DNA of 64,000 nt from a virus (IMGVR_UViG_3300033121_001335:1-64000), one strand, 5' to 3'; counted from the first letter of the stretch, positions 31,038 to 47,688 are shown. The notes: generated by a model from the sequence alone, not told the origin. Made by a program: numbers and translations.

Positions 31038-31312
31038 TGGATTTAGCAGACATACAAATAGGGCAGTGGTATGCATCTAATAATAAAGAACAGCCTAATT
31101 ATCATTTTAAAGCATCAGAAATATATGTTAAGAGCAAAAAGGCTAAAGTGTTAAAAGTGGGACGTTGGAAACACCAGCCTGCTGGCTATGGCGAAATGTC
31201 AAATCCTGATTATTGGAGAAATGCCACCCCTGTAAACTATTTAAACATAGAACATCTCATACCAGATGAATTTAAAGAAAATAGAGAAACAGAGCCACTA
31301 TTATTTAATTAA
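31037..31312 (+). CDS. small early protein, tail family (..TEPLLFN)
   Basis: ORF track. Confidence 0.65.
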   Translation: MDLADIQIGQWYASNNKEQPNYHFKASEIYVKSKKAKVLKVGRWKHQPAGYGEMSNPDYWRNATPVNYLNIEHLIPDEFKENRETEPLLFN

Positions 31313-31323
31313 AACTATATAAT

Positions 31324-31608
31324 ATGAAACATAAATTACCATTTTATGTAGTGATAAGTCGGTCAGGACCTAATAATAGCGGCCATCCAAATTATAAAAC
31401 ATCAGCTATATATAAGGATGGACAACAATATTTTAAGGTGGTGGATATTTCTACAAATAAAGAACATGGTAACACTGAGAATCATGTAACATACATCACG
31501 GAGGATGGTTACCACTTGTGGAGTATGTGTGTTAATGAAGTGTCAGAACAAGAGTATATAACAAATAGGGGGCTTGAATTAATTCATGAACCTCAAATAT
31601 TCAATTAA
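31324..31608 (+). CDS. small early protein, tail family (..HEPQIFN)
   Basis: ORF track. Confidence 0.65.
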   Translation: MKHKLPFYVVISRSGPNNSGHPNYKTSAIYKDGQQYFKVVDISTNKEHGNTENHVTYITEDGYHLWSMCVNEVSEQEYITNRGLELIHEPQIFN

Positions 31609-31654
31609 GGAATCAATTTTTAATTATAAACAAACAAATCAAAAAACAAACAAA

Positions 31655-32119
31655 ATGGCAACAAAAAAGCAAGAAACAATCACAGCATTGACAGTACAAT
31701 CATCAGTTCCAGATGCTTTACAAGCAATTAATGCACGCATCGCAGCAATGAAACACATTCAGGAATGTGTGTATTTAACATCTGGTAAAATCACTACAGG
31801 CAGTGGTGGACAAAAGGATATTAAAGAAGAAAAGAATGTTACAGAATTAGTGAAGGCTTTTTCTGGTATTCTCTTCCGTGCCAAAGCCATCGAAGAAGCC
31901 TATGACGAATTAGGTATTGATTCATATCCAGCTGTAAAGGTGGATGGTGGTACAGTGGAAGAGTGGAAAAAAGACATTCTTCTCCGTATTGAAATCATCA
32001 ATCAAAAAGACACTCTGGATGAATTAAACAGCTTAAAGAAAGAGTGGGAAGATTTGATGGACAAAGAAGATAAGAAAGCAATGCTTGTGAAAAAAATGGA
32101 AAAATTCGCCAACGGCTGA
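31655..32119 (+). CDS. hypothetical protein (154 aa)
   Basis: ORF track 31586..32119 trimmed to ATG at 31655 (MATKKQETI...) after an A-rich leader; ends ..KFANG; own terminator. Confidence 0.6.
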   Translation: MATKKQETITALTVQSSVPDALQAINARIAAMKHIQECVYLTSGKITTGSGGQKDIKEEKNVTELVKAFSGILFRAKAIEEAYDELGIDSYPAVKVDGGTVEEWKKDILLRIEIINQKDTLDELNSLKKEWEDLMDKEDKKAMLVKKMEKFANG

Positions 32120-32141
32120 TTTTTTTGTTGATTATTAAACT

Positions 32142-32178
32142 AAAGGGTGTGTAGTTTTTATAGCTGCACACCCTTTTT
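32142..32178 (+). terminator. intrinsic terminator
   Basis: GGGTGTGTAG (32145-54)/CTGCACACCC (32164-73) plus T5. Confidence 0.7.
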
Positions 32179-32190
32179 AAATTTTATTTT

Positions 32191-32451
32191 ATGAGAAATA
32201 TAATGGATTTTGATGGAAACAGAGAGCAAATAGCAGTTAATAACAATGAAGAGTTTAAAAAATTAATTCCAATTTTAAACCTAAGATTTAAAGGCTGGAA
32301 AGAAGGAATGGGAAGTGGGGATTATCCACTTTATATTATACTGGAGGGAGCATGGGATGGACATACAAACATTAAACAAATTCATAAAGCCGTAATACAA
32401 GCCTCAGAATATTATACAGAACAAGAATGTATTTCTAATATATTTAATTAA
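32191..32451 (+). CDS. small early protein, tail family (..CISNIFN)
   Basis: ORF track. Confidence 0.6.
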   Translation: MRNIMDFDGNREQIAVNNNEEFKKLIPILNLRFKGWKEGMGSGDYPLYIILEGAWDGHTNIKQIHKAVIQASEYYTEQECISNIFN

Positions 32452-32464
32452 AACTCAGTGTTTT

Positions 32465-32734
32465 ATGGAAAAATGGTGTATTTTAAGAACCAAAGAAAAT
32501 TATATAGAACTTAACGATTGGTTTAATAAAAAGTATGGTTTAGAACTTTCAGACTGTAAAGGATATTTGCATTCTTATGTGGTGTCTCCTAATTGTGTTG
32601 TACCCTATTTAATGAGTATTTATAGCGATGGTCAAAGAGACAAAGAGGCCACAATAATAACAATAGAACAATTCAGAGAGCTAACGAAAGCTCCTGTTGA
32701 TAATAAAACTTTTGAGCCACAAATATTTAATTAA
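32465..32734 (+). CDS. small early protein, tail family (..FEPQIFN); KWxI/ITxEQF paralogue
   Basis: ORF track. Confidence 0.65.
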   Translation: MEKWCILRTKENYIELNDWFNKKYGLELSDCKGYLHSYVVSPNCVVPYLMSIYSDGQRDKEATIITIEQFRELTKAPVDNKTFEPQIFN

Positions 32735-32740
32735 TGTATT

Positions 32741-33043
32741 ATGAGAATGAATGAATTAGAAATAGGAAATTATTATAAATCCATATGGGGTAGTGGAGAA
32801 CAATATGGTATTATAAGATATGACAATATGTTCACGGACATTAAGAGTAGTAATTATGTACATGATAATTATGTTTATTTAGGTTACAATAAAACCATAA
32901 CTGCTAAGGGGGATGGCAGCGGTGCCAGTAATGAATGGAAACCATGCACTGAAGAGGAAATAAGGATATTTGAAGACCAATTTGAAAAGCAGTTTGGCAA
33001 TAAAAAGAATAAAAAAGCATTTACGCCCTTAATATTTAACTAA
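32741..33043 (+). CDS. small early protein, tail family (..FTPLIFN)
   Basis: ORF track. Confidence 0.65.
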   Translation: MRMNELEIGNYYKSIWGSGEQYGIIRYDNMFTDIKSSNYVHDNYVYLGYNKTITAKGDGSGASNEWKPCTEEEIRIFEDQFEKQFGNKKNKKAFTPLIFN

Positions 33044-33199
33044 TTAAGGCCAATTATAGCACTCGTTTGAAATAAAACGTGAGGAAATAATAATCCAAGA
33101 TGCGTCCATAAATGCATTTGGACAAGGGTGCTTTTCATCATCCTATTTGGCCTGTGGTGCTATAAATTGGTTTTTTAATAAATTAAAAAATAAATTAAT

Positions 33200-33472
33200 A
33201 TGATAACAGAATTACCTAAAAAATGGGCAATAAGATGCACTCCAGAGAGTTCTAATTTTATAAATAAATTTTATCAAGACCATTTAAAAGAATATGAAGG
33301 TTGTAAGGGGAGATTTCCAGTAGTAATAGATGCATATTTACATTATCCTCAACATACATCAGCTTGTCATTCTAGAATGAATGGACCTGCTGAAAATTAT
33401 ACAGTGATTTCTTTTTTAGAATTTTGTACATTCGTGCTAAATCATTCAGACGAACCACAACTATTTAATTAA
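33200..33472 (+). CDS. small early protein, tail family (..DEPQLFN); KWxI/ISFLEF paralogue
   Basis: ORF track. Confidence 0.65.
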   Translation: MITELPKKWAIRCTPESSNFINKFYQDHLKEYEGCKGRFPVVIDAYLHYPQHTSACHSRMNGPAENYTVISFLEFCTFVLNHSDEPQLFN

Positions 33473-33490
33473 CAAATAAAAACAAACAAA

Positions 33491-33718
33491 ATGAATCAGC
33501 AATTGACAAATTCCTATGCTCCAACACTATTTGGAAGTCCTAACATTATGGTTAAAACAGACTATAGTGTTTTTAAACAAACAGATGAGCAAAAGTCTGA
33601 TGCTATAGCAGCTAAATGGCAACATAAAATTTTTATGAATAAAAATGGCATTAATCCTAAAAAGCATCTAAACATCCCTATTTACAGACTTGAGCAATCT
33701 ATTAAATTTAGTACATAA
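33491..33718 (+). CDS. hypothetical protein
   Basis: ORF track. Confidence 0.55.
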   Translation: MNQQLTNSYAPTLFGSPNIMVKTDYSVFKQTDEQKSDAIAAKWQHKIFMNKNGINPKKHLNIPIYRLEQSIKFST

Positions 33719-33824
33719 TGACACCACACCATAAAAGAAAAATACATCCCATAGAACTGGTTGTTTCTATTATAGAGTTTGTGGGATTTTTATATTTATA
33801 TTGCTTATTAAAAACTATTTAAAA

Positions 33825-34670
33825 ATGGAAAAAACTAATTATTTAGAAACGAAATATCAGGGGATTATTCCCTATCAAATAGAAGAAGGAAAAAAACATA
33901 TTACGTTAGCCCCCGGTGTATATCAACTTGGCTATTATGAAATTGCTCCTATGTGTATTGTTGACCACTTTATGCCATTAAAAGAGCAAGACAGTCTTAT
34001 AAGATTTAAAGATAGTGTTGTTGACGATGTAGTGAATAAGGTGGATAAATTCTTTTCTCAGAATAGTGTAGATGCCTATAAAGAATTAAAATTAGTGCAT
34101 AAAATGGGCATGATTATACATGGTCCTCATGGAACAGGTAAAACAAGTTCTGCTATGTTAGCCCTAAGAGCTATAGCTAAAAAATATGATGCTATATGTC
34201 TTGATTGTACGCCCAGAACTTTAAATAACTGTATAAACACTATAAAAAATATCAGACAGCACCAAAAAAATCCCATTATAATGTTTATGGATGAATTTGA
34301 GGTGGAAATGAGAGAAAGAGAGGAGCAGTGGCTGCCATTTTTAGATGGGACAGGAAGTTTTGAGAATTTTGTTTTTATAGCTTGCACCAATTATATAGAC
34401 AAAATTCCTGATAGGATAAAAGATAGAAAATCCAGAATTAAACACATTGTGGAAATTAAGGGACTGCCAATGGCTGTATATTCTGAATATATTAAAGACA
34501 GACTTCCAAATTTAAAATCTGAAGAGTTAGCCGAATTTGCTTTTAAAGCTGAAAATGAAAAATTGACTATTGACCAAGTGAAAAATGCTCTTATAGATTA
34601 CAGAATTGAGGGCTGGTCTATAGACAAGGCTATAAAGGTGGCAGCTTCTATAAAGGACGAATCTATTTAA
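33825..34670 (+). CDS. AAA+ family ATPase
   Basis: Walker A IIHGPHGTGKTS and Walker B IIMFMDEFE. Start moved from TTG at 33801 to ATG at 33825. Confidence 0.8.
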   Translation: MEKTNYLETKYQGIIPYQIEEGKKHITLAPGVYQLGYYEIAPMCIVDHFMPLKEQDSLIRFKDSVVDDVVNKVDKFFSQNSVDAYKELKLVHKMGMIIHGPHGTGKTSSAMLALRAIAKKYDAICLDCTPRTLNNCINTIKNIRQHQKNPIIMFMDEFEVEMREREEQWLPFLDGTGSFENFVFIACTNYIDKIPDRIKDRKSRIKHIVEIKGLPMAVYSEYIKDRLPNLKSEELAEFAFKAENEKLTIDQVKNALIDYRIEGWSIDKAIKVAASIKDESI

Positions 34671-34693
34671 TCAAAATTTGAAACTAAATTATT

Positions 34694-34990
34694 ATGAGTT
34701 TATTTCCAATTCGAAAATTAAGATATGTAAAAGTGGAATCTCCATTCTTGCCTGTAAAACCCGAAAATAAGCCAGAATTTGTCTATCATGGAAGAAAAGC
34801 TTTTAGAAACCCGCCAGAGCTATTACAAGCCTATTTAAAAGGGGGTAGAAGATTTTCTGAGAAAAGGAGAGAAGAAATAAAAGAGCTCTATCCTGCCCAA
34901 ATAAAGGCTAAACCAAGGCAGAGCTTGTGGCCCAATTGTAAAACAGTGTTGGATGCTGTATTTAGTCCATTTTTAAAACCTGTAATATGA
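34694..34990 (+). CDS. hypothetical basic protein
   Basis: ORF track. Confidence 0.6.
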   Translation: MSLFPIRKLRYVKVESPFLPVKPENKPEFVYHGRKAFRNPPELLQAYLKGGRRFSEKRREEIKELYPAQIKAKPRQSLWPNCKTVLDAVFSPFLKPVI

Positions 34991-35142
34991 AATACACTGA
35001 ACAAGGATGGCATATTGAATATGACCCCTCTATAACTGAAGAAATGTTTAATGAGTTTGTAAAAACCCTTTCTAATGATGGTATTACTTTCTTTAAAAAG
35101 CTTCAACTGGAGAATAACGAAGAAGTGGAATCAGAAGCTTAA
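34987..35142 (+). CDS. hypothetical 51-aa acidic protein
   Basis: Manual translation MKYTEQGWHIEYDPSITEEMFNEFVKTLSNDGITFFKKLQLENNEEVESEA*; ATGA overlap. Confidence 0.4.
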   Translation: MKYTEQGWHIEYDPSITEEMFNEFVKTLSNDGITFFKKLQLENNEEVESEA

Positions 35143-35166
35143 TTATTTTATTAGCTTAATTATTTT

Positions 35167-35202
35167 AAAAACAGGGGGAAGGACAAATTCTCCCTGTTTT
35201 TT
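35167..35202 (+). terminator. intrinsic terminator
   Basis: CAGGGGGAA (35172-80)/TTCTCCCTG (35188-96) plus T6. Confidence 0.7.
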
Positions 35203-35228
35203 ATAACATTTAATTAAAAACATCAGTT

Positions 35229-35483
35229 ATGGACGAATTATTAGAACAAGCACAAAAAGACTATCCTATAGGAACTAAATTTAAAGTGGCTCATATAGAC
35301 CACAATCCTTCTGAATATATTGTAGCTGGTGGTTGGAGGTGGGAAGATAATGAAAAAAGAGTCATTCTTTGTGATGTCGTTGGAAGCGCAACGGGCTATG
35401 CCCCCTGTCTTAAATACAAGAACACATGGGCTCCTATAATAGAATTAGGAAACATTATTTTCGAACCATTAATATTTAATTAA
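35229..35483 (+). CDS. small early protein, tail family (..FEPLIFN)
   Basis: ORF track. Confidence 0.65.
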   Translation: MDELLEQAQKDYPIGTKFKVAHIDHNPSEYIVAGGWRWEDNEKRVILCDVVGSATGYAPCLKYKNTWAPIIELGNIIFEPLIFN

Positions 35484-35484
35484 T

Positions 35485-35745
35485 ATGAAACATGAAAACT
35501 TTATAGTGCAAGTGAAGACTGAAGAAGAGTTTTTAAGTGTTCTCAAATCTATGGAACACTCGCTTCCAATTTTAACATATAGTTCACACAAAGATAGTTA
35601 TAAACAGTTTGTTCCACCCACTGGTGTGTATTATATAGGTGTTCATAATAATTCTGGGTGGTATAATGGCAGCTGTTCCTATCCCTTTATAACTTTTGAA
35701 GAATTTTTACAGAAAGAAAAATCCGAGTGTATAATATTTAATTAA
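35485..35745 (+). CDS. small early protein, tail family (..SECIIFN)
   Basis: ORF track. Confidence 0.65.
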   Translation: MKHENFIVQVKTEEEFLSVLKSMEHSLPILTYSSHKDSYKQFVPPTGVYYIGVHNNSGWYNGSCSYPFITFEEFLQKEKSECIIFN

Positions 35746-35753
35746 ATTCTTTT

Positions 35754-35921
35754 ATGAATATATGTACGAAAATCAAGCAGAGATTTAATGAGCTAAGGAT
35801 AAAAGGTAAAAAGAGTATAAAATTTGATAAAAAGGAAACAACAGAAAAGCAACTGGAAGAACTCAGAGAATGTGGATATACAGTAAAAGAAATTAATAAT
35901 AATATAATTATATCAGAATGA
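35754..35921 (+). CDS. hypothetical 55-aa protein
   Basis: Manual translation MNICTKIKQRFNELRIKGKKSIKFDKKETTEKQLEELRECGYTVKEINNNIIISE*; ATGA overlap. Confidence 0.4.
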   Translation: MNICTKIKQRFNELRIKGKKSIKFDKKETTEKQLEELRECGYTVKEINNNIIISE

Positions 35922-36208
35922 AAACAATAGATTATGCTGCGGGAGACATAGTAGTGTGTTTGCGGGCTATAAAAGATAGGGGCGGTAAGCATAAACAGTC
36001 TAAATCGGTTATAAAAGACTATTTTTACAAATGCATTGGTGTATATAATCCCACTGTATATAATCCAAAAGAGGGTATCACTTGTGGATTAGACGGCTTT
36101 ACATTTATTCTTACAGCTTCTAGGTTTAGAAAGGCCACAGAAGAGGAGCTGTTATTATATAATTCAGGAGCTAAATCTATTAATGTACAATATATAATTT
36201 TTAATTAA
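35918..36208 (+). CDS. small early protein, tail family (..QYIIFN)
   Basis: ORF track. Confidence 0.65.
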   Translation: MKTIDYAAGDIVVCLRAIKDRGGKHKQSKSVIKDYFYKCIGVYNPTVYNPKEGITCGLDGFTFILTASRFRKATEEELLLYNSGAKSINVQYIIFN

Positions 36209-36474
36209 TGAATCAACATATAATGGAAAATCTAAAAAACGCTTTTATTCCCGGTGTAAAATTTAAAAGACACCCTAATCATGTAACTTGTCTTAAAGAC
36301 AAAATATACACTGTAGCTTCTCCACTTAGGATAGTCAGCGGGAACACTACAGAAGATTTAATGGTGTGTACAGTTGAAGAAGCTTATGTACATATATGCA
36401 ATAATGGAAAAGATTGGGCTACTATTCTAGAATCTAATCCTGTAATAAATGATAATCCCTTAATATTTAACTAA
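36208..36474 (+). CDS. small early protein, tail family (..DNPLIFN)
   Basis: ORF track; TAATG junctions on both sides. Confidence 0.65.
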   Translation: MNQHIMENLKNAFIPGVKFKRHPNHVTCLKDKIYTVASPLRIVSGNTTEDLMVCTVEEAYVHICNNGKDWATILESNPVINDNPLIFN

Positions 36475-36863
36475 TGAGTAGTATAAAATTTAATCCAATA
36501 GAAAGATTTATAATAATAGAGCCTGTAATAGATGAAGTGTATTGGCTTCAGTTTTATGATGATAGGTCTAAAACTCAACCCACTGATTATTTATGGCTCA
36601 CTAGATGGGGAAAAGACGGAAACAATAAATTTTCAATATGTACATATCATAATGAAAAATATAAAAACAGTTGGTATTCTGAAGATGTTGCAATTTTTAC
36701 ATCTTCTATATCTGGTAATAGACATAATTTATATTTACCAAGAACAGAAGAACTAGTTTGGCACAGAGCAATGGAACTCATTGGAAAAACCAGTCCCGTT
36801 TCAAATATAGAAGAGTGGCTTAAAAAAACTACAATTAATAATGATATTTTAATATTTAATTAA
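36474..36863 (+). CDS. small early protein, tail family (..NDILIFN)
   Basis: ORF track. Confidence 0.65.
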   Translation: MSSIKFNPIERFIIIEPVIDEVYWLQFYDDRSKTQPTDYLWLTRWGKDGNNKFSICTYHNEKYKNSWYSEDVAIFTSSISGNRHNLYLPRTEELVWHRAMELIGKTSPVSNIEEWLKKTTINNDILIFN

Positions 36864-37093
36864 TGGGAAATAAGGCAGATGAGGCTAAAGATGCCATAGA
36901 TGAGCTTCTTAAAGAAAAAGAAAGCGAAATAGAAGATTTACAATCAGAACTAGATGATATGACATCAGAAAAAGATGATTTACAAGAGCAATTGGATGAA
37001 TATAAAGAAGAAAATAAGAATCTAAAAGATATTATAGAAGCATTAGAAAACAAAATTAAACAATTAACAGCTATTCCTCATATATTTAATTAA
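36863..37093 (+). CDS. acidic coiled-coil protein, tail family (..AIPHIFN)
   Basis: ORF track. Confidence 0.65.
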   Translation: MGNKADEAKDAIDELLKEKESEIEDLQSELDDMTSEKDDLQEQLDEYKEENKNLKDIIEALENKIKQLTAIPHIFN

Positions 37094-37095
37094 TT

Positions 37096-37299
37096 ATGAA
37101 ACAATCAAAAGGCGTATTAATAACAGAATTAATAGTGACACTATTTCTGATGATAAGTTATATATGGTTGTGTTTATCAGATGAAGCCTCTGGGGGAATA
37201 TCCACAATGGTAGTTTGGTTTGTAGGATATATAACAATATTAGATAAAATTACTAAATTTGTAACATGGAATTTTGACCCCCAAAATTATAAAATATGA
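37096..37299 (+). CDS. small membrane protein
   Basis: Hydrophobic spans LITELIVTLFLMISYIWL and MVVWFVGYITIL. Confidence 0.55.
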   Translation: MKQSKGVLITELIVTLFLMISYIWLCLSDEASGGISTMVVWFVGYITILDKITKFVTWNFDPQNYKI

Positions 37300-37874
37300 A
37301 TAAATTTAACTGGTTGAAAAGCTTTTTTAGTCCTTTTAAAAGACCCAAAATTAAATTATATATAGGAAAGACGACTATAGGCACTCCCTATTTTCTTCCT
37401 AGAAAATGGGTTAAAATACCAAAAGAAGAAGTTATAAAACAAGCCAAAGAAAAATATGATAAGTGTCCTAAAGAATATCAAACTTTGCATCATTATAACA
37501 GTTTATTAAATTGTTGTAAAGGGATGAAACAGCCTATTTCAAAGAAAATAGGATTTGATTTTGTGGGGTTGGGGTGGAAAACTAAATTTGGCGATTACAG
37601 ACACGAGTGGAATCCTGTATGGAGCTTTGTCTTTTTTAGGTGGCAAATAGCCATACAATTTATCCCTATTCATGATATGCATTATTGGGAAGCTTGGCTA
37701 TATTATGAATTAGACACAGACAAAAGATGTAATAAAATGGAGAGGATTGATATGTGTTTAAAAAAGGCCCCCCAAATTTGGACTAGCTATAATAAAGATG
37801 GTAGTAAAACCACCACTAATTATTACACTAAAATACTGAAAAAGAAATATTTAAAACTGATAAAAAATGAGTGA
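37296..37874 (+). CDS. hypothetical protein
   Basis: ORF track. Confidence 0.65.
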   Translation: MNKFNWLKSFFSPFKRPKIKLYIGKTTIGTPYFLPRKWVKIPKEEVIKQAKEKYDKCPKEYQTLHHYNSLLNCCKGMKQPISKKIGFDFVGLGWKTKFGDYRHEWNPVWSFVFFRWQIAIQFIPIHDMHYWEAWLYYELDTDKRCNKMERIDMCLKKAPQIWTSYNKDGSKTTTNYYTKILKKKYLKLIKNE

Positions 37875-38607
37875 AATAATAGCAATCGGTGATACACATG
37901 GCAGGGCTCTTTGGAAAGATGTTGTTGAAAAGCATAAAAATGCAGATAAAATAGTGTTGATTGGAGATTATTTTGATACACATGACGACATTTCTCCAGA
38001 ACTTCAAATGATAAATTTTAGGGAAATTTGTCAGTATAAAGAAGCTCATAAAGAACAAATTGTTCTGCTTATAGGTAATCATGATGAGCACTATTTTCCA
38101 TTTATGGGAAATTCTGGTACATCTGGATTTAATGCAGGAGCTGCTCCAGCAATAGGACACTTATTAATGACATACAAAGACCTGTTACAAATGGCTCATT
38201 ATGAGGATAATATATTATTTACCCATGCTGGTGTAGGAGAAACATGGTTTAATGCTAATATTCCCGAAATAAAAGAAGAATGGAGCGCTAAATATATGTC
38301 AGACAGCATTAATGATGTATGGAAATATAAACCTCTTTCTTTTAAATTTAACGGTTGGAGAGATTCATCGGGGGACGAAATAGGACAAACACCAATATGG
38401 ATAAGACCCAGAGCTTTATTACAAGACACTAAAAATATGAGAAAAGCTGGAATTATTCAAATAGTTGGACATACGCAGGTGACTAAAATTGATGTAGAGG
38501 GTAGTAAGAAAAATACAGGAGGGAAACTGTTTATGATAGATGCTCTGGGTACATCCGGAGAATATTTAGTTATTAAAGATGGAGAATTTATTGTTAAAAA
38601 ATGCTAA
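37867..38607 (+). CDS. metallophosphoesterase (calcineurin-like Ser/Thr phosphatase family)
   Basis: Motifs IGDTHGR, LIGDYFD, GNHDE, FTHAG, VGHT. Confidence 0.85.
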   Translation: MSEIIAIGDTHGRALWKDVVEKHKNADKIVLIGDYFDTHDDISPELQMINFREICQYKEAHKEQIVLLIGNHDEHYFPFMGNSGTSGFNAGAAPAIGHLLMTYKDLLQMAHYEDNILFTHAGVGETWFNANIPEIKEEWSAKYMSDSINDVWKYKPLSFKFNGWRDSSGDEIGQTPIWIRPRALLQDTKNMRKAGIIQIVGHTQVTKIDVEGSKKNTGGKLFMIDALGTSGEYLVIKDGEFIVKKC

Positions 38608-38610
38608 AAT

Positions 38611-38907
38611 ATGAAATATAGTAAAGAATTAAATGGTGTGTACCACGCTAAAAATCATACATATACATATCTGGTAGAATTTAATAATGGAATTAGTGGA
38701 TGTGGATTAAAGAATGGCAATAATGCTAGAGATAATAATTTTGATGTATTTTTTACCACTTCTGATTTTAATAAAAATTCAGATGGTTATGACTACGTTT
38801 TAGCAGATGAACGCCATACAAATTGGCTGAAATCATGTAAGAAAATAGGAAAATTTACATTAGAAATAAAACAAATAGAATTGGTGGAACCATTATTATT
38901 TAATTAA
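38611..38907 (+). CDS. small early protein, tail family (..VEPLLFN)
   Basis: ORF track. Confidence 0.65.
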   Translation: MKYSKELNGVYHAKNHTYTYLVEFNNGISGCGLKNGNNARDNNFDVFFTTSDFNKNSDGYDYVLADERHTNWLKSCKKIGKFTLEIKQIELVEPLLFN

Positions 38908-38920
38908 AACAAGAAAAATT

Positions 38921-39283
38921 ATGAAAGAAGAAAAAATTATTGATAAAACAAAAAATTCAATAAACACCTTACATCCCTACAGATTAGCAAATGACTTATG
39001 GGTTTATGATGATGAAGATTTGGGGGTTTATAGCGAAGCCTTCGTTATGGGTAGTTCTGAGGTAATAAATCATCTGGTAGGTATGGAATGTGATAAATTT
39101 ACTATGTTTATATCTGCACAACCTATACCAGAATATGATGCACATTTAGTAAAAATTAAGGGGGATGGCAGTGAGGGCTGGTATCAATTACAAGGTACTG
39201 GAATGGAGCATTGGCTATGTGGGCAGGTGCTGGCTTATTTCCCAGATTATCCTTCAGACATATATGTGAAGTTGAAAAAATAA
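38921..39283 (+). CDS. hypothetical protein
   Basis: ORF track. Confidence 0.65.
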   Translation: MKEEKIIDKTKNSINTLHPYRLANDLWVYDDEDLGVYSEAFVMGSSEVINHLVGMECDKFTMFISAQPIPEYDAHLVKIKGDGSEGWYQLQGTGMEHWLCGQVLAYFPDYPSDIYVKLKK

Positions 39284-39332
39284 ATTTGGATAAAAGTAAT
39301 AAAATATACGCATTAATTAAAGTTTAATAAAT

Positions 39333-40202
39333 ATGGCAAAATTTAAAAAGGGTGACATAGTAGTTCTTAAAAAAGACTCTGAATATTATATCCCCAAAGC
39401 CCCAAAATATAGTAGTAATCCAATTCATACAGAAGGAGTTATTACTTCAGTAAGTTCAGGAGAATTTGGCATTCAAGTAAAATGGAATAACAACACTACA
39501 AATGGTTATTCTTTTAAAGATTTAGAATTATTCAATCAAAAAACAGAAAAAATGGCAACAAGAAAAACAACAACAAAACAATTTCAATTAGAAGCCGGAC
39601 AGTATTTTACAGCTACTTATGGCAAGAAAAAGGTGAGAGGAGTGGTGGCGGACGCACCAGATGATTACGATAATTTTGTATTATATGGAAAAGATTTTGA
39701 TGATGATGCCGAAGATGATGACGCAGAATTTAGCACACAATTATACATCGATATGTATGGGAGGGAGGACCAAAGTCACACAGATGTGTTAAAAGACTAC
39801 GGAATTACTAATTTTGTTTTATTAACAGATAAGAGACAAAAGGCTATTGTTGATGGAGATAAATGCCTAACTGTAGCGGGACATAAAGTGCATATTAAGG
39901 GTAATTTCGTAAATTTTGGGTGTGGCGCTGTTAGCACCACTAAAAAAGAAATAAAAGACTTTTATGCAGTGTATAAGGATGTAGATGTAAATGAGCATAT
40001 GCGTTATAAAGAGTTGATAGACGAAATAGGCGAAACAGCATTTGAAGAGGCTGTAGCTTTTTATAATCAATTCAAAATGTACACTACAGCTCAGCAAAAG
40101 GCATTTAATAATCTTGTAAAAGAAATGGATAATGCTGACAATGTACTCTTAGAAGATTTGAATAGGAAAGAAGTGGATGAATTAATGAAGAAATTAGACT
40201 AA
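39333..40202 (+). CDS. fusion protein: N-terminal tail-family module (..DLELFN) joined in frame to a larger downstream domain
   Basis: TTC AAT CAA at 39531-39539 sits where family members have TTY AAT TAA. An A-rich leader plus ATG (39552, MATRKTTTKQ) follows. Confidence 0.6.
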   Translation: MAKFKKGDIVVLKKDSEYYIPKAPKYSSNPIHTEGVITSVSSGEFGIQVKWNNNTTNGYSFKDLELFNQKTEKMATRKTTTKQFQLEAGQYFTATYGKKKVRGVVADAPDDYDNFVLYGKDFDDDAEDDDAEFSTQLYIDMYGREDQSHTDVLKDYGITNFVLLTDKRQKAIVDGDKCLTVAGHKVHIKGNFVNFGCGAVSTTKKEIKDFYAVYKDVDVNEHMRYKELIDEIGETAFEEAVAFYNQFKMYTTAQQKAFNNLVKEMDNADNVLLEDLNRKEVDELMKKLD

Positions 40203-40210
40203 AAATAAAA

Positions 40211-40238
40211 AAAGAGGGGAGAAATTCCCTCTTTTTTC
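40211..40238 (+). terminator. intrinsic terminator (GAAA loop)
   Basis: GAGGGGA-GAAA-TTCCCTC plus T6. Confidence 0.65.
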
Positions 40239-40239
40239 T

Positions 40240-40247
40240 TAAATTTG
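40240..40247 (+). promoter_or_regulatory. -7 promoter box TAAATTTG, 5 nt upstream of the polymerase ATG
   Basis: Matches TAnnTTTG; spacing implies a leaderless or near-leaderless mRNA. Confidence 0.45.
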
Positions 40248-40252
40248 TGCCT

Positions 40253-42181
40253 ATGTTAGAAAATAATGTATATATATTTGATATTGAAGGTGATGGTTTG
40301 CTTTCTACTATTACGAAAATTCATTGCGTTTGTGCATATAACATAAAAACCAGAGAAGCTGTACAATTGACTAATTATCAAGAAATTGAACAATTTTTTT
40401 CTGACGAAAAAGCCACTTTTATAGGACATAATATTATACGTTTTGACATTCCGGCATTAAAAAAGATAATAAAGGTAGAAATAAGGGGTGATGTAATTGA
40501 TACACTAGCAATATCGTGGGTGTTAGAAGAAAACAGAAAAAATCATGGATTGGGGAGCTACGGAGAGGAGTTTAATATAAAAAAACCAGAAATAAAAGAT
40601 TGGAACAGCCTTACAGTAGAGGAATACATTCATAGGTGCTCCGAAGATGTAAAAATAAACACCACTTTATGGAACAGGCAAATAAAATATTTAAAACAAG
40701 TTTATTATCAAGATGATAAGAATTTATATAGGTGGTTTAAATATCTGAGATTTAAACTAGAGTGTGTGTATGAACAAGAAACTGAGGGGCTGAGATTAGA
40801 TGTTAATAAAGCTAAAAAGCACTTTAATGAGCTCTCTATTCTTAAAGAGGAAAAAATCAAAGAATTAGAAGCTGCTATGCCTAGAGTAGCCATTAAAAAA
40901 AAGAGGGTGTATAAAGATGCTGTAAAAGATAGTAATGGTAATGTTTTTGAAAAGGGTGACCTGTTTTATAATTCTCAACCTATTAGCAGGAAAAAAGAAG
41001 AAATAATAGAAGAAAAAATCATAGGTTGGAAAGAGCCTAATGCTAATAGTCATGTTCAGATAAAGAATTGGTTATACAATTTAGGTTGGATACCACAAAA
41101 TATACAGCATAAAAGAAATAAAAAAACTGGTGAGATAAAACTTATTCCTCAAATAAAAAGCCAATTTGAAATAGGAGAAATATGTGATAGTGTTAAATTA
41201 CTATTTAAAAAAGAACCAAAATTAGAGGCTTTAGGAGGATTGTCGGTGCTTACCCATCGTATTAGTATATTTGAAGGATTCATATCCGATGAGGAAAATG
41301 GACGCATATATCCCTCTATGAATGGTTTAACTAACACCCTGCGTCTTAAACATAGGGTAATTGTCAATCTACCTAGGGCTGGGAGGGCGTATGGGGAGGA
41401 CATTAGGGGGTGTTTAATAGCTGATGAAGGATGCATTTTATGTGGAAGTGATTTAAGCGGTATAGAGGATAGCACTAAAAGACATTTTATATATGATTAT
41501 GACCCTGAATATGTAAAAAGTATGGACACTCCGGGGTATGACCCCCATTTAGAGCTCGCTGTATTGGCAAAATTTATGACCAAAGAGGATGCTGATTGGT
41601 ATAAGGAAGAATCCAAAAAACGTAAAGATGAAGCCTATAAAGCCTCTACAGAAGACAATCAGAGGTTTACAGCTTTAACAGCTAAAAGGTATGTGGCTAA
41701 AACTACTAACTTTGCAGCAACATATAAAGTAGGAGCTAAGGCCTTAAGTGTATATCCCGGTATTAATTTAGGAATGAAGGAAGCAAAGAGGGTAATAGAT
41801 ACATATTGGAAAAGAAATAAGGCTATTTTGGACGTAGAAAATAGTTTAAATGTCAAAGAGGTATATGGGCAAAAATGGCTTTTTAATCCTGTTAGTAGAT
41901 TTTGGTATACATTAAGGGCTGATAAAGATAGATTTAGTACATTAAATCAGAGTACGGCTGTATTTGTATTTGATAAGTGGCTTACAGAAATTAAAAAAGC
42001 TGGTGTTAAAATACCATTCCAATACCATGATGAAATAGGATTTAATGTTAAAAAAGAGAAAAAAAGAGAAAATACAGCGATTATTAAACAAGCCATACAA
42101 ACTGTTAACGACAAATTAAAACTAAATATAACAATAGGATGCAGTGTTGATTATGGTAAAAAATATAGTGATATACATTAA
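40253..42181 (+). CDS. family-A DNA polymerase with 3'-5' exonuclease domain
   Basis: Exo I IFDIEGDGL, Exo II GHNIIRFDIPAL, motif B RYVAKTTNFAATYKVG, motif C YHDEIGF. Start moved from GTG at 40247 to ATG at 40253. Confidence 0.9.
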   Translation: MLENNVYIFDIEGDGLLSTITKIHCVCAYNIKTREAVQLTNYQEIEQFFSDEKATFIGHNIIRFDIPALKKIIKVEIRGDVIDTLAISWVLEENRKNHGLGSYGEEFNIKKPEIKDWNSLTVEEYIHRCSEDVKINTTLWNRQIKYLKQVYYQDDKNLYRWFKYLRFKLECVYEQETEGLRLDVNKAKKHFNELSILKEEKIKELEAAMPRVAIKKKRVYKDAVKDSNGNVFEKGDLFYNSQPISRKKEEIIEEKIIGWKEPNANSHVQIKNWLYNLGWIPQNIQHKRNKKTGEIKLIPQIKSQFEIGEICDSVKLLFKKEPKLEALGGLSVLTHRISIFEGFISDEENGRIYPSMNGLTNTLRLKHRVIVNLPRAGRAYGEDIRGCLIADEGCILCGSDLSGIEDSTKRHFIYDYDPEYVKSMDTPGYDPHLELAVLAKFMTKEDADWYKEESKKRKDEAYKASTEDNQRFTALTAKRYVAKTTNFAATYKVGAKALSVYPGINLGMKEAKRVIDTYWKRNKAILDVENSLNVKEVYGQKWLFNPVSRFWYTLRADKDRFSTLNQSTAVFVFDKWLTEIKKAGVKIPFQYHDEIGFNVKKEKKRENTAIIKQAIQTVNDKLKLNITIGCSVDYGKKYSDIH

Positions 42182-42183
42182 TT

Positions 42184-42375
42184 ATGGAAAACTTAAAATT
42201 AGACATATTCAAAAAACAAGAAAGCGCCTACTATCCTATACATTCAAAGAACTATTGTTGGAAGGGAATATTTGAATATTTAATGTGGTATAAGGTGGAA
42301 GAAAAAACAACATTAATTAGTGTGGGAACTAAAGGACTTTTAGCCTTTAATATTCCTGCTTTTTGTTTAAATTAA
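42184..42375 (+). CDS. hypothetical protein
   Basis: ORF track; ends ..AFCLN. Confidence 0.55.
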   Translation: MENLKLDIFKKQESAYYPIHSKNYCWKGIFEYLMWYKVEEKTTLISVGTKGLLAFNIPAFCLN

Positions 42376-42381
42376 TAAATT

Positions 42382-42618
42382 ATGGAAAAGAAAATAGCAG
42401 TGTATTGTCCCACCCCAGAAATATTTGAATTAGTTGCTAGCAAAATTAATTGGCCTCATGGGAATATTTGGTCTAACTACCAAGAACGTACTGTAGTAGA
42501 CATTTCTCTTAAACAATATTGTAATAGAGAATATTATGAAAATAAAAAAGAAAAATATAATATACTCACCTATAGTGAATGGATTGGTGAGGATGGGGAT
42601 GTATTAATTTTTAATTAA
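42382..42618 (+). CDS. small protein, tail family (..GDVLIFN)
   Basis: ORF track. Confidence 0.65.
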   Translation: MEKKIAVYCPTPEIFELVASKINWPHGNIWSNYQERTVVDISLKQYCNREYYENKKEKYNILTYSEWIGEDGDVLIFN

Positions 42619-42624
42619 AAAATT

Positions 42625-42909
42625 ATGGAAAAATTACCAGAAAAATGGTTTATTAACCCAACCAATGAAAATGAGAGCATGGCTGTATCAAATTGGTTTG
42701 CCCAATATAGAAAATACTCAAAAGGATGTGAAGAATCATATAATTGGTATTTTCCGGCTTATGAAAATAGTGGAGAATTACAATTTTGTTATACACACGG
42801 AAAAGTAAAAGGCAATTTAATGGATGGCTACGAACAAATAACGTTTTCTCAATTTAAACAATACGTTCTAGAAGAAAATGATATTTTTACTCCCTTAATA
42901 TTTAATTAA
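42625..42909 (+). CDS. small protein, tail family (..FTPLIFN); KWFI/ITFSQF paralogue
   Basis: ORF track. Confidence 0.65.
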   Translation: MEKLPEKWFINPTNENESMAVSNWFAQYRKYSKGCEESYNWYFPAYENSGELQFCYTHGKVKGNLMDGYEQITFSQFKQYVLEENDIFTPLIFN

Positions 42910-42910
42910 T

Positions 42911-43054
42911 ATGCTTAAAATCAATTCAGAAAAATATATTGAAATATTTAAAGACTGGCCCAACAGAGAAATGATTTTGTCAGGATGGGAATGGATAGTG
43001 AAATATTATTTCTACATTCCTGTTATTATATACACTAAAAAATTATACAAATGA
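42911..43054 (+). CDS. hypothetical 47-aa protein
   Basis: Manual translation MLKINSEKYIEIFKDWPNREMILSGWEWIVKYYFYIPVIIYTKKLYK*; ATGA overlap. Confidence 0.35.
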   Translation: MLKINSEKYIEIFKDWPNREMILSGWEWIVKYYFYIPVIIYTKKLYK

Positions 43055-43350
43055 GTGAACTAGAAATACTGAAAAAATTAGAAAGAAAATATAGTAGATG
43101 GATAAACAGATGGAGTTGGGGTAGAACTTGGAACGACACTTGTTTTGGATTGTGTCGTGCCCTCTCTCAAATTGTTGGATTTAATGGACTTGATTATAAA
43201 TTAGTGTATTTAAGATTGTATTCTGAATCTATTAATTTTGGAAATACGAGAGATGGTGTATATTGGTGGAAAGAAGGCTTAATAAAGCCAAGACTACAAA
43301 CTATCAGAGCAGCAATTAAAACCCTTAAAAATGAACAGAAAAATATTTGA
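43051..43350 (+). CDS. hypothetical protein
   Basis: ORF track. Confidence 0.6.
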   Translation: MSELEILKKLERKYSRWINRWSWGRTWNDTCFGLCRALSQIVGFNGLDYKLVYLRLYSESINFGNTRDGVYWWKEGLIKPRLQTIRAAIKTLKNEQKNI

Positions 43351-43552
43351 GGAACAATTAGAGGAGGAATATCATCAGGATGTGCTTGATTATCAACAAG
43401 AACAAAAAGAGCAAGAGTCAGAACTGTTTAACATATATACAGGAAAGCCAATAAAAAACATTAATTTACATAAATTACATTTTAAAAATAGGAGAAATCA
43501 TTATAGATTTGCAAAGAAACATCCTGTTTTTAATCAAAAACTCCCTTTCTAA
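43331..43552 (+). CDS. hypothetical protein
   Basis: ORF track. Confidence 0.55.
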   Translation: MNRKIFEEQLEEEYHQDVLDYQQEQKEQESELFNIYTGKPIKNINLHKLHFKNRRNHYRFAKKHPVFNQKLPF

Positions 43553-43719
43553 TGATGCTAGAAGAACTTTTTAGAACAAAAAAATCAAATAGTATTAAAA
43601 TATATGAAGTTCATATGTATGCTTGGAATAAAGCTATGATGTCTGGACATTCAATTTTTGGGGAATCGTGGAATTATGTATGGCTTAAAAGCTATAATGA
43701 AAAAATAAAAGAATTATGA
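43552..43719 (+). CDS. hypothetical 55-aa protein
   Basis: Manual translation MMLEELFRTKKSNSIKIYEVHMYAWNKAMMSGHSIFGESWNYVWLKSYNEKIKEL*. Confidence 0.35.
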   Translation: MMLEELFRTKKSNSIKIYEVHMYAWNKAMMSGHSIFGESWNYVWLKSYNEKIKEL

Positions 43720-44315
43720 GTAAATTATTTAATTTTACGGAAAACCATTTCCTATCCCTTATTAAACAGAAGATTCCTCTGGATTGCATATTCTTGTTAG
43801 AATTAATAGTTTTAGGAGAAAATGTAGATTCAGAGGAATATCTTCCATTTATTCAAAGACTACAAAGAAAGGGATATATAGATGGGAAACAGGAGCTTAC
43901 AGAATATGGAACAGCTTTATATAAAAGTTTGTTTGAAGAAGTGGTGGCTGTTAAGCCTAAAACAATAGTTCAGAAGAATGATTTATTTGAAAAATGGTGG
44001 GAGACATACCCTGCCACTAATGATTTTACAATAAATGGACGACATTTTCAGGGTTCACAAACAAAAAGAATCCAAAAAGATGAATGTAGAAAAATGTTTA
44101 CTATTATGTGTAATTCTTTTAAAGGGGAGGATATAATAGCTGCTACAGCTTATCATATTAACAACGCTAAAGAAGTGAGCTTTAAAAGAAAGGATAATCA
44201 GCTCACATATGTTACTAATTCTCTTAGATATTTAAGAGAGAAATATTTTGAACCATTTATATCAAAGGTTAAGGAGAAGGAACAAATAGCAGCATCAAAA
44301 GAATTTGAAATATGA
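43716..44315 (+). CDS. hypothetical protein (helicase loader/initiator candidate by position only)
   Basis: ATGA overlap with the downstream DnaB-like helicase. Confidence 0.6.
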   Translation: MSKLFNFTENHFLSLIKQKIPLDCIFLLELIVLGENVDSEEYLPFIQRLQRKGYIDGKQELTEYGTALYKSLFEEVVAVKPKTIVQKNDLFEKWWETYPATNDFTINGRHFQGSQTKRIQKDECRKMFTIMCNSFKGEDIIAATAYHINNAKEVSFKRKDNQLTYVTNSLRYLREKYFEPFISKVKEKEQIAASKEFEI

Positions 44316-45397
44316 GTTTTTTTAAGGATTTAAAACAGACGATATTAGACGGACAGGAAGGAAAAAACAAGGGACATTCATTAGGAATGTCTCGGTTGGA
44401 TAGGTATATAAGCCTTAGAAAGAAAATGTTCTATGTAATCATGGGGAGTACGGGCTCTGGAAAGAGCTCTTTATTACATGATACATTCATCCTTAACCCC
44501 TTGGAAGCTCTATTACTAAATAAAGAAACAGATAAGAAATTGAAATATAAGCTTTTAAGCATGGAAAGGAGCAAAAGCTATATTCATGCTAAATGGCTTA
44601 TAAGAAGGATATTTTTGGATACGGGACAGCTTATTCCTATGCACACCCTATTAAATTGGTATGGAGATAAACTTAAAGCAGATGCTTTAGAACTTATTGA
44701 CACATATGAAGACTATTTTATTAGACTGGAAGAGCATATAGACATATATGAAGGAGGAAGAAGTCCAAATGATATATTTAGAATAGCCAGAGAATATGCA
44801 GAAACTCACGGAGAAGAAAAGAAAATAAGTGAATATAAAAAGGTGTACATTCCTGCAAATGAACATGAGGAAGTGGTATTTTGTGCTGACCACTTGGGTC
44901 TTTGTAAAACCACTAAGGATGCCGTCACTAAAAAACAGGCTATTGATAAAACCGTGGAAAATCTCCAATATATGAGAGACTATTTAGGATGGAGTGTTAT
45001 AGCTGTTAATCAACTTAATAGGGATTTGAGTAGTTCTATATACAGTAAGCTGGATTCGTTTGAGCCTCATATAGATAATGCTAAAGAAACAGGTAATACA
45101 GCTGAGGCAGCTGATGTTGTTATTAGTTTATTTGACCCTATGAGGTTTAATACAAACGATAAATTTTACGGGAATGTTGAGGTGTTTAGAAGTCCTGAAA
45201 CAGGGCAGAAATTCTTTAGGAATATTAAAATTCTTAAAAATTCATACGGAGCCGATGATATTGGCATTGGGGCCGTATTTCATGGCGAAACAGGGCATTT
45301 TGCTGAGCTTCCAAAGAGTAAATTTATAAAAGACAATTGGAAACAAGAGGATTATGATTCAATTTTTAATGGGTCTTATTTTCTACAAAAACAATAA
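44312..45397 (+). CDS. DnaB-like replicative helicase (RecA-fold C-terminal domain type)
   Basis: Walker A IMGSTGSGKSSLL and Walker B-like VVFCADHLG; arginine-finger region VNQLNRD. Confidence 0.7.
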   Translation: MSFFKDLKQTILDGQEGKNKGHSLGMSRLDRYISLRKKMFYVIMGSTGSGKSSLLHDTFILNPLEALLLNKETDKKLKYKLLSMERSKSYIHAKWLIRRIFLDTGQLIPMHTLLNWYGDKLKADALELIDTYEDYFIRLEEHIDIYEGGRSPNDIFRIAREYAETHGEEKKISEYKKVYIPANEHEEVVFCADHLGLCKTTKDAVTKKQAIDKTVENLQYMRDYLGWSVIAVNQLNRDLSSSIYSKLDSFEPHIDNAKETGNTAEAADVVISLFDPMRFNTNDKFYGNVEVFRSPETGQKFFRNIKILKNSYGADDIGIGAVFHGETGHFAELPKSKFIKDNWKQEDYDSIFNGSYFLQKQ

Positions 45398-45400
45398 AAA

Positions 45401-46609
45401 ATGAAACAATTTAAAAGAGGTGATAAAATAAAAATAATAAAAGACTTTAAAGATGGTAGGTCTGGTATGGATGGAAAAATTGGTGTGTTTTGGGATTATA
45501 CAAGCAGAGAACAACAAAGGGATGGTTATTGTTATATAGTTAAAACACAAGAAATTCATGGACTGGTTTGTGCTGATATTGAATTAGTGGAGGAATTTAA
45601 AAGTGGTGATAGGGTTAGAATAATTAAAGAGTGGAAAGACCAAGAAGGGGGACCATTTGAAGGACAAACAGCTATATTCAGTGCTTATTTAGCTCCCGAC
45701 AGCTATTATGGCAGGCAGGGTTATAAATATCTTGTGGATAAACCATCTTTAGTAGTTTGGGATATTGAACTTGTAAAAGAGAAAGAATTTGAAGTTCCAA
45801 AAAAATGGTGTATAAATGTTTCAGATTTTTCAGTGGGTGAATATTTAGTTAATAATTTTGTTCCGGCTCAGGATTGGTATTTAAAAATGCCAAACAATGT
45901 TAATTATTTTCATTTTAAAAAAAATAATTTTCATTTTTGGAGAGAAATAAAAGATGAAGAATACACAGAAATTACATTTGAACAATTTAAAAAATACATA
46001 TTAAAACAAAAAACAATGGAAAAAGAATTAATTGGCTATCGGCTAAAAGATGAAAAATATAGAAATGCTGTAAATGCATTAATTATTGAATGTGGAGTGT
46101 TTTCAAACAAAATATTAAGTTTAAATAGTCCAAAAACTATAGCCGCTTTAAGAGAAGCTAATGTCTTGGATGTGTGGTTTGAAGCTGTTTATAAAGAAGA
46201 GTCCCTACTAAAAGTGGGGGATTGGATATATTTTCTAGAATCATATGATGACAAACCAATAGGAGCTGTTAGAAAAATCTCTGGCGTACAGCCTGATTCT
46301 TACAATGGACTACAATGGGTGAATTATAGAGATGGTGGTTTTAGAGTGGGTGGAAACGGATATTTTGAAAACGAACATTATAGAAGAGCTACACAAAAGG
46401 AAATAGATGAGGTTACAAAGGTAGAAATTGGTGGATACACTGCAACAATTGAGAATGGAAAAATAGCTTTTGGTTGCCAGTGTTTTAGCAAAGAAGAGCT
46501 TTTAACTATTAAAAGACTGTTTACTCTTGAAATAAATGCCACTATATCTATTCATGGTGTGAGTATAACAAGAGAAATAATAGATAGGTTATTAGAGTTA
46601 TTTGATTAA
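45401..46609 (+). CDS. multi-domain hypothetical protein (two SH3-like FK.GD..(K/R)IIK repeats plus a KWCI/ITFEQF module)
   Basis: FKRGDKIKIIKDFKDG and FKSGDRVRIIKEWKDQ. The internal segment VPKKWCIN..YTEITFEQFKKYIL resembles the small tail-family genes. Confidence 0.65.
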   Translation: MKQFKRGDKIKIIKDFKDGRSGMDGKIGVFWDYTSREQQRDGYCYIVKTQEIHGLVCADIELVEEFKSGDRVRIIKEWKDQEGGPFEGQTAIFSAYLAPDSYYGRQGYKYLVDKPSLVVWDIELVKEKEFEVPKKWCINVSDFSVGEYLVNNFVPAQDWYLKMPNNVNYFHFKKNNFHFWREIKDEEYTEITFEQFKKYILKQKTMEKELIGYRLKDEKYRNAVNALIIECGVFSNKILSLNSPKTIAALREANVLDVWFEAVYKEESLLKVGDWIYFLESYDDKPIGAVRKISGVQPDSYNGLQWVNYRDGGFRVGGNGYFENEHYRRATQKEIDEVTKVEIGGYTATIENGKIAFGCQCFSKEELLTIKRLFTLEINATISIHGVSITREIIDRLLELFD

Positions 46610-46617
46610 TATTGTAT

Positions 46618-47688
46618 ATGACAAAAGATGAGATTCAGGCGAAGGCTGTAGAACTATTTAAAAAACAGCCTTCGCTTTTAATTGAATGGCCTACGGGATG
46701 TGGGAAGGGGTTGGCTGTAATGAAATGTATTTTAGCCTCTGGAAATGGGCCAAAATGGCTCATTGTGGTGCCGGAAATCGTCCAAATAAGTAATTGGTGG
46801 CGAGATTGCGAAAAATGGGGCCTTAGAAACAAAATAAGCCCCTTTATTGAGGATGTAATATGTTATGCTAGCTTAAAAAATTGGGCCGGAAAACGGCTTA
46901 GAATCGCTTTAAATGAGTGTCACCACTTGTCAGAAGAAAGGGCTAATATTTTAGCTTCAATAGAATACACCCAAATTATAATGGACAGCGCCACAATACC
47001 CACAGACGTAAAGGAAAGACTTCCCGCTCATATCAGCTATAAAATAAGCATGAAAGAGGCGGTAGAATGGGGAATTTTGCCAGCACCGGGGGTAAATATT
47101 CATTATATAGAGCTTGACGATTGGCAAAAACTATGGCCTAAAAAGCTCAAATCAGGCAAAATATTAATGGTGACGGCAAAATCCTATTATAGTGATTTAA
47201 CAGCTAATTTTAAATATTGGCAAAATAGACACAGAATGGAGGGGGAGCCTTGGCAACAAAAAAGGATGTTTATGTCTGCTATATCCAGAAAGAGGTGGAT
47301 GTCTGAATATAAGACAAAAAAGGCCAAAGAGGTGATAGAGCTTATAAAGAATAAGAGATATGTCGTATTTTGTGGGTCTGTTAAACAAGCTAAAGAATTG
47401 GGGGGTAAACAGGCTATTCACAGTGGGAATAGGCATAATCAAGAACTTATTGATGAATTTAACATGTTGATAACCAATAATTTATATGCTTGTTCTATGA
47501 TGAAGGAGGGTATGAATTTAGAGGGCATAGAAGCCGGACTTATTACACAACTGGATGCTGGAGATTTGGGTAATATTCAAAGGTTGGGTAGATTGTTAAG
47601 AAGTGATTTTCCTGAACTTCATTTAATATGTTTAAAGGATACAAAAGATGAAGAATATTTAGAAAACTTTTTAAAAGCAATAAAATGA
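46618..47688 (+). CDS. superfamily-2 DNA/RNA helicase
   Basis: Motif I WPTGCGKG, motif II LNECHHL (DExH-like), motif VI QRLGRLLR. Start moved from TTG at 46612 to ATG at 46618. Confidence 0.75.
   Translation: MTKDEIQAKAVELFKKQPSLLIEWPTGCGKGLAVMKCILASGNGPKWLIVVPEIVQISNWWRDCEKWGLRNKISPFIEDVICYASLKNWAGKRLRIALNECHHLSEERANILASIEYTQIIMDSATIPTDVKERLPAHISYKISMKEAVEWGILPAPGVNIHYIELDDWQKLWPKKLKSGKILMVTAKSYYSDLTANFKYWQNRHRMEGEPWQQKRMFMSAISRKRWMSEYKTKKAKEVIELIKNKRYVVFCGSVKQAKELGGKQAIHSGNRHNQELIDEFNMLITNNLYACSMMKEGMNLEGIEAGLITQLDAGDLGNIQRLGRLLRSDFPELHLICLKDTKDEEYLENFLKAIK

Follow-up and report, generated by a model that had tools for sequence, protein, structure and literature searches.

The window analysed here is the whole 64,000-nucleotide (nt) stretch of viral DNA IMGVR_UViG_3300033121_001335:1-64000, a phage-like segment with a G+C content of about 0.32 whose genes lie on the + strand from about 19 kb on. 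A dense array of small genes spans 27.2-42.9 kb and then continues into a replication block, and about 22 of the array genes (27236..42909), which we call tail-family genes, terminate in the hexapeptide xP(L/Q)(I/L)FN followed by TAA. Common to the array and the block is a module of about 75 residues with the pattern LPEKWxI ... YTEITFEQFKKYVL, termed KW below, which profile comparisons identify as a genuine protein domain with four copies in the window.

KW copies in the window

The copies lie in three stand-alone genes and within one gene for a protein of 402 amino acids (aa); open reading frames (ORFs) are referred to by their first nucleotide.

32465..32734, + strand: 89-aa stand-alone gene with a KW module (nt 32468-32680), a variable linker and C-terminal EPQIFN; found with external profiles and a six-frame scan
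33200..33472, + strand: 90-aa stand-alone gene with a KW module (nt 33209-33445) and an EPQLFN tail; found with phmmer, external profiles and the six-frame scan
42625..42909, + strand: 94-aa stand-alone gene with a KW module (nt 42631-42876) and a TPLIFN tail; found with phmmer, external profiles and the six-frame scan
45785..46012, + strand: internal KW module at residues 129-204 of the 402-aa protein; found with an external profile and the six-frame scan (hit at 45788-46012)

With the xxIFN tails trimmed, phmmer aligned 33200 with 42625 at E = 5e-6 and 42625 with the 402-aa protein at E = 2e-3 to 6e-3; gene 32465 ranked next and was by itself not significant. To avoid circularity, a first external profile was built from 27 foreign copies only and searched against all tail-trimmed ORFs of the window together with 20 shuffles of each. 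It retrieved the 402-aa protein (E = 1.5e-21, residues 129-209), 33200 (1.4e-11), 42625 (1.6e-11) and 32465 (2.5e-8), followed by 35485 at E = 0.012, and the top decoy scored 8.8 bits. A profile of 397 foreign copies scored 33200 at 52.1 bits, 42625 at 63.5 bits and 32465 at 49.2 bits, values reached by 0 of 2000 composition-preserving shuffles of these genes, none of which exceeded 13 bits; the hhalign probability for 32465 was 98.3%. The three genes and residues 129-204 of the 402-aa protein all count as full-length copies, matching about 70 of 76 profile positions with scores far above the shuffles, and a scan of the window in six frames found the same four copies and no others. The shared module proposed in the preliminary description is therefore backed by significant profile similarities for four copies (external profiles, and 0/2000 shuffles for the three small genes), and its placement of the embedded copy at about 45797-46015 agrees with the six-frame hit.

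Chance or composition, that is, short motifs recurring in the K/N/F/I/Y-rich proteins of an AT-rich genome, might be suspected from the 23-27% identity between the stand-alone copies and the embedded one, and from the fact that two of the six examples first put forward fail or almost fail the tests. The probability of this is negligible: shuffles peak at 13 bits against the 49-63 observed, profiles without any window sequence still recover the core copies, and homologues number in the thousands. For the four core copies we consider chance resemblance ruled out by the shuffles and the external-only profiles.

The preliminary description had listed two further members, both tail-family genes, which fared differently.

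35485..35745, + strand: 86-aa tail-family gene resembling the C-terminal half of the module, over nt 35581-35709 (..YPFITFEEF) only; 397-copy profile and hhalign
28186..28449, + strand: tail-family gene interrupted in frame by TGA at 28336-28338, outside the detectable KW family; profile, hhalign and relatives

Gene 35485 is borderline. Its score of 14.5 bits was equalled by 1 of 2000 shuffles, profile positions 20-70 alone match, and hhalign gave 83.9% over 33 columns of the C-terminal half only; the KW strand is absent, with ENFIV in place of the invariant Trp strand. A search of a 5.8-billion-protein database for wider homologues from which to build a profile returned near-identical sequences only. 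From these matches, 35485 is a probable divergent or partial relative of KW. Gene 28186, read through its TGA, was rejected as a member (3.7 bits, a score that 339 of 2000 shuffles attain; hhalign 0.9%), and so was 42382..42618 as a distant member (4.7 bits, inside the shuffle range; hhalign 2.5%). What did stand for 28186 is its interruption by a single TGA: at that position L037:2134-2397 and L038:675-938 carry TGG (Trp), and the gene of these relatives is intact, at 87 aa. TGA terminates 11 of the 57 long ORFs in the window. Since TGA is an ordinary stop here and the relatives carry TGG at the interrupted site, recoding was rejected and the interruption is best read as a nonsense mutation by a single G-to-A change, or as a sequencing error.

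Size, architecture and age of the KW family

A profile (A1) of 29 module copies, searched against 1.84 billion representatives of clusters at 50% identity, matched 2899 proteins at E <= 1e-3, 908 of them at E <= 1e-10. Copy number and architecture were catalogued for the best 150 of the 2899 matches plus earlier matches: 101 of these proteins carry two copies, 25 three, 10 four, 5 five and 1 seven. With the 402-aa protein as query, a search of 5.8 billion proteins returned 22 homologues (P0001-P0022), most with a KW module and some with 2-5 tandem copies; a search for related loci with the whole 402-aa protein returned no loci. At the DNA level, a pattern back-translated from EITFEQFKKY was present in 32 viral contigs and only 2 contigs of the genome collections, both from metagenome-assembled genomes.

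Across 397 foreign copies the module consists of two conserved ends and a variable centre. The N-terminal frame, F-x-L-P-E-K-W-x-I, keeps its Pro in 95% and its Trp in 98% of copies, and the C-terminal frame, Y-T-E-I-T-F-E-Q-F-K-K-Y-V-L, its Ile in 95% and its Phe in 98%. Between them lie 30-35 residues, rich in Ser, Asn, Gly and Tyr, that are hypervariable in both sequence and length. The same division holds among close orthologues of the stand-alone genes, whose frame and last six residues are invariant while the centre and the linker leading to the tail differ. No conserved constellation of His, Cys, Asp or Ser appeared in the module columns of the 397 copies, and over 411 copies the median isoelectric point (pI) is 6.8 and the mean net charge -0.2 (pI 4.9-7.1 for the window copies). 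An AlphaFold model from a 29-sequence alignment (predicted local distance difference test score, pLDDT, 78.5; predicted template modelling score, pTM, 0.67) suggests a strand-helix-(short helix)-strand-strand-strand-helix topology.

Known families offered little to compare with. A Pfam scan of the module genes and 93 carrier proteins found no domain, enzymatic or anti-defence, NCBIfam gave no match to the module, and a profile search of the PDB returned chance matches only (best E = 0.19, antibody light chains). Foldseek found no convincing fold match for the model and none to any DNA-binding domain. The sole database entries with any similarity, all weak or partial, are two PHROGs families without functional annotation (phrog_6245, E = 8e-3; phrog_5703, E = 1e-3; each for a single member) and two uncharacterised BFVD models (A0A345BPJ9 and A0A345BPL4; Foldseek E = 2.5e-4, template modelling score 0.61, 27% identity). 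Searching 50,697 GenBank phage records by tblastn with the 402-aa protein and the five-copy carrier P0007 found no homologue, and a literature search for the motif strings gave nothing relevant. By these searches KW is a sizeable domain family new to Pfam, NCBIfam and the PDB, although promiscuous small phage domains are already known as a phenomenon. Naming a family of at least 2899 clusters at 50% identity would annotate part of the "dark" block of phage proteins.

The embedded copy belongs to a larger protein of composite build.

45401..46609, + strand: 402-aa multidomain protein with six domains; local domain hidden Markov models (HMMs), homologues P0001-P0022 and an AlphaFold model (pLDDT 64)

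Its domains are two small-barrel repeats (residues 1-64 and 66-125), KW (129-204), X1 (207-269), a barrel-like domain termed GDW (270-342) and CT (341-402); scans of the protein against Pfam, PHROGs and NCBIfam found no known domain. As had been noted from the start, this copy has no FN tail, and the protein ends ..LELFD. The accompanying description of the copy as flanked by SH3-like repeats was accurate as to two N-terminal repeats: a single HMM matches both, the second at E = 3.5e-15, and they also align pairwise. An SH3 fold is weakly indicated, with five strands modelled over residues 9-62 at a pLDDT of about 60-70 and PDB matches by Foldseek to SH3, Tudor, PsaE and NusG-KOW domains all at E > 0.05. 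The homologue P0001 (L002:2681-3703, 340 aa, 85% identical) has a single repeat of about 62 residues where the window has two (45401..45775), and from this comparison the N-terminal repeat appears to be a recent tandem internal duplication.

Shuffling of domains between the array and a replication-module protein, as first suggested, is supported and extends further than stated. At least three other tail-family domains (those of 30696 and 35229, and the GDW type of 28612) are fused to KW elsewhere.

30696..31037, + strand: 113-aa tail-family gene whose domain (d30696) forms the N-terminus of many KW fusion proteins elsewhere; 40 external phmmer hits, P0056 at E = 3.5e-18
35229..35483, + strand: 84-aa tail-family gene whose domain (d35229) is fused to KW elsewhere; 26 external phmmer hits, best E = 8.8e-9
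28612..28842, + strand: 76-aa tail-family gene with a GDW..ATxEEI domain shared with residues 270-342 of the 402-aa protein; GDW HMM, E = 3.3e-7

The GDW model also matches the N-terminus of 53388..54566 (1.3e-8) and, more weakly, 35918..36208 (4e-5), and the CT domain (..FGC..) recurs in residues 180-220 of 39333..40202. Foreign carriers fall into two types. Type I has the order d30696-KW-(d35229)-KW-(d35229) and adjoins a family B polymerase; type II, to which the window protein belongs, has the order KW(n)-X1-(GDW)-CT and has genes for a DnaB-like helicase, a DEAD helicase and AAA_24 in its vicinity, in some cases with a primase-like gene.

Contigs near-identical to the window, which are metagenome-derived and in one case, by its record name, from wastewater, differ from it in array gene content. 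In the slot 34987..35483 the window has a 51-aa ORF and the 84-aa d35229 gene; the same slot in L037 (9385-9999) holds a single 204-aa fusion ending EPLIFN, and in L038 (7924-9258) an extra 444-aa multidomain gene in which a KW-like stretch (SWCVKVTEEN...TTEEFYQKV) accompanies several barrel-like domains. Fusion and fission occur between near-identical phage genomes. The idea that the array as a whole is a fissioned type I protein was rejected, as the inter-domain segments of type I have no detectable counterpart among the window ORFs, and for the same reason the shared order d30696, KW, KW, d35229 may be coincidence.

The stand-alone copies have their own relatives: orthologues of 32465 (P0172-P0176) retain the tail, those of 33200 are P0169 and P0175, and L002:85-345 is an 86-aa KW gene ending EPLIFN and syntenic with 42625. 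Orthologues aside, the window copies score 30-54 bits against foreign multidomain proteins and 5-21 bits against their window siblings, which argues against recent local duplication, and each stand-alone copy has its own conserved set of tailed orthologues in related contigs. The copies therefore appear to be old, either ancient paralogues or independent acquisitions, with no recent local expansion. A recent duplication within the array, with one copy later captured by the 402-aa gene, would fit 33200 and 42625 being mutual best matches within the window, and one recent duplication is indeed present inside the 402-aa protein, in its barrel repeat; given the scores and the separately conserved orthologues, such an origin is highly improbable.

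Putative role of the KW module

The replication genes around the embedded copy are the following, each assigned as part of the replication block, which also includes an exonuclease-like gene.

40247..42181, + strand: family A DNA polymerase
44312..45397, + strand: DnaB-like helicase
46612..47688, + strand: DEAD-box helicase
47952..48614, + strand: AAA_24
49968..51005, + strand: primase-like gene
62323..63387, + strand: RecA

The 402-aa gene lies between the two helicase genes, and the stand-alone gene 42625 between the DNA polymerase and helicase genes. Elsewhere, KW carriers stand beside polymerase, helicase or primase genes at about 25 independent IMG/VR loci.

The explanation we favour, with a probability of about 0.6, is that KW is a mobile phage domain with a non-catalytic binding or adaptor role in or near phage DNA replication or the take-over of host replication, and that its copies in the window are ancient. 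The module is an autonomous building block of about 75 residues, evolutionarily mobile across a large group of uncultivated tailed phages. Its variable centre may set specificity, while the conserved ends would make up the core and perhaps a shared docking surface. In the window, three and perhaps four small early-region proteins would combine the module with a flexible linker and the invariant hexapeptide, and one copy sits within the six-domain protein of the replication gene block; other phages carry the module in tandem arrays or joined to domains which in the window have small genes of their own. It is the almost constant position of these fusions next to DNA polymerase, helicase or primase genes that points to a role in or around phage DNA replication or in taking over the host replication machinery. 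That domains split here are fused elsewhere also suggests joint action by several of the small early genes, probably at the replisome or close to it.

Several points weigh against this explanation. Any function, partner or ligand of the module is putative, and the link to replication is one of gene neighbourhood only. Inspection reached the best 150 of the 2899 matches. The variable centre could mean relaxed constraint instead of diversified specificity, and the conserved surface-type residues E, Q, K and K of TFEQFKKY could mark an unrecognised site. For the three stand-alone copies, which sit in the early "hyperplastic" array, roles in host take-over or anti-defence are equally plausible.

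KW might instead be a sequence- or structure-specific nucleic-acid-binding domain, with tandem arrays reading recurrent sites in DNA, for example iterons or an origin. Carriers stand consistently beside polymerase, helicase or primase genes, arrays of 2-7 copies occur, and the module moves as a unit between small and large proteins, as do Bro-N and KilA-N. The latter are widely shuffled DNA-binding modules of DNA viruses, reportedly described by Iyer, Koonin and Aravind in 2002 as promiscuous small domains of DNA-virus proteins. Like them, KW is compact, occurs both as a stand-alone small protein and in many fusion combinations, and has spread by domain shuffling. Its near-neutral charge, the missing fold match to a DNA-binding domain and the absence of a Pfam hit speak against binding to nucleic acid, which we consider unlikely.

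A somewhat weaker case can be made that the stand-alone copies are effectors of host take-over or anti-defence and the multidomain carriers "polyvalent" conflict proteins, with the centre shaped by an arms race and the replication neighbourhood incidental. The small copies belong to an early array that is variable, has about 22 genes with the tail and differs in gene content between near-identical relatives; the module centre also evolves fast among orthologues. The long KW carriers also resemble the polyvalent proteins of phages and conjugative elements, reportedly set out by Iyer et al. in 2017, in concatenating many independent domains that are also found alone. Polyvalent proteins are, however, defined by recognisable enzymatic or anti-defence domains, whereas none known to Pfam is present in 93 KW carriers or in the 402-aa protein, and the multidomain carriers are anchored in the replication blocks of many unrelated contigs. 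We therefore regard the effector explanation as rather improbable.

A comparable setting is known from large lytic phages such as T4, which have hyperplastic regions of small early genes. The array shares with these regions a dense same-strand arrangement of genes of about 60-130 codons whose content varies between close relatives. Unlike them, about 22 of its genes share an invariant C-terminal hexapeptide, and several of its domains are also found in other phages as parts of replication-module fusion proteins.

The C-terminal tail and its surroundings

The tail xP(L/Q)(I/L)FN is always followed directly by TAA, which frequently overlaps the following start (TAATG). Its codons for Pro, Leu, Ile, Phe and Asn show synonymous variation, so we rejected the tail as a by-product of a conserved DNA signal; the codon variation points to selection on the peptide and not on the DNA. 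The linker before it differs in sequence and length among orthologues, and a variable linker ahead of an invariant tail is as expected for a short linear docking motif.

Beside KW carriers elsewhere lie proteins (L017:4699-6639 and L027:8212-10074, and others in L022, L011, L003, L033, L032, L021 and L026) that have no Pfam hit and whose DVAGLYPT and NTDG motifs suggest divergent family B DNA polymerases. All terminate in NQL(T/N/K)LF or NQLxLFN except the one in L021, which terminates in NQLTLW. C-termini of the NQLxLF type are the classical bacterial sliding-clamp-binding motif. Because these neighbouring polymerases end in NQLxLF(N), a beta-clamp-binding peptide (QL[SD]LF type) was considered for the tails as well, and was rejected since xP(L/Q)(I/L)FN departs from the spacing of Q-L-x-L-F, which has Gln at position 1 and Leu/Phe at positions 4 and 5 of a terminal pentapeptide.

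In the middle of the array lies an AAA+ ATPase gene (33801..34670, PF00004), kept there in the relatives L037-L039 and L042. Its PHROG matches are to generic ATPase and "clamp loader" families, and as a candidate reader of the common tail it is only a lead. One could go further and picture KW, d30696, d35229 and GDW as an undescribed combinatorial toolkit of replisome-associated proteins, fused beside the polymerase in some phages and split here, with the tag docking each piece onto a common hub, for which the AAA+ ATPase and the host sliding clamp would be candidates. This is a long shot. If true, the tag would replace covalent linkage, making a natural split-versus-fused "Rosetta stone" system built on a short linear motif.

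Megablast against the 50,697 GenBank phage records gave no DNA-level match, and the DNA polymerase alone matches GenBank phages, at about 43% identity to Pseudomonas phage PA11-like polymerases. Directly upstream of the array is a tyrosine recombinase/integrase gene (26216..27046; PF00589, E = 2e-36), which suggests a temperate or integrative lifestyle, or else a function in site-specific recombination. Just ahead of the tail-family gene 28186, at 28100..28170, lies what resembles an intrinsic terminator, a G+C-rich hairpin with a run of T after it (aaaagggggctttttt). Within the replication/recombination block, 55788..56516 encodes a protein of the ThiF/E1-like adenylyltransferase family (PF00899, E = 6e-19), with an unannotated gene on either side (426 and 361 aa).

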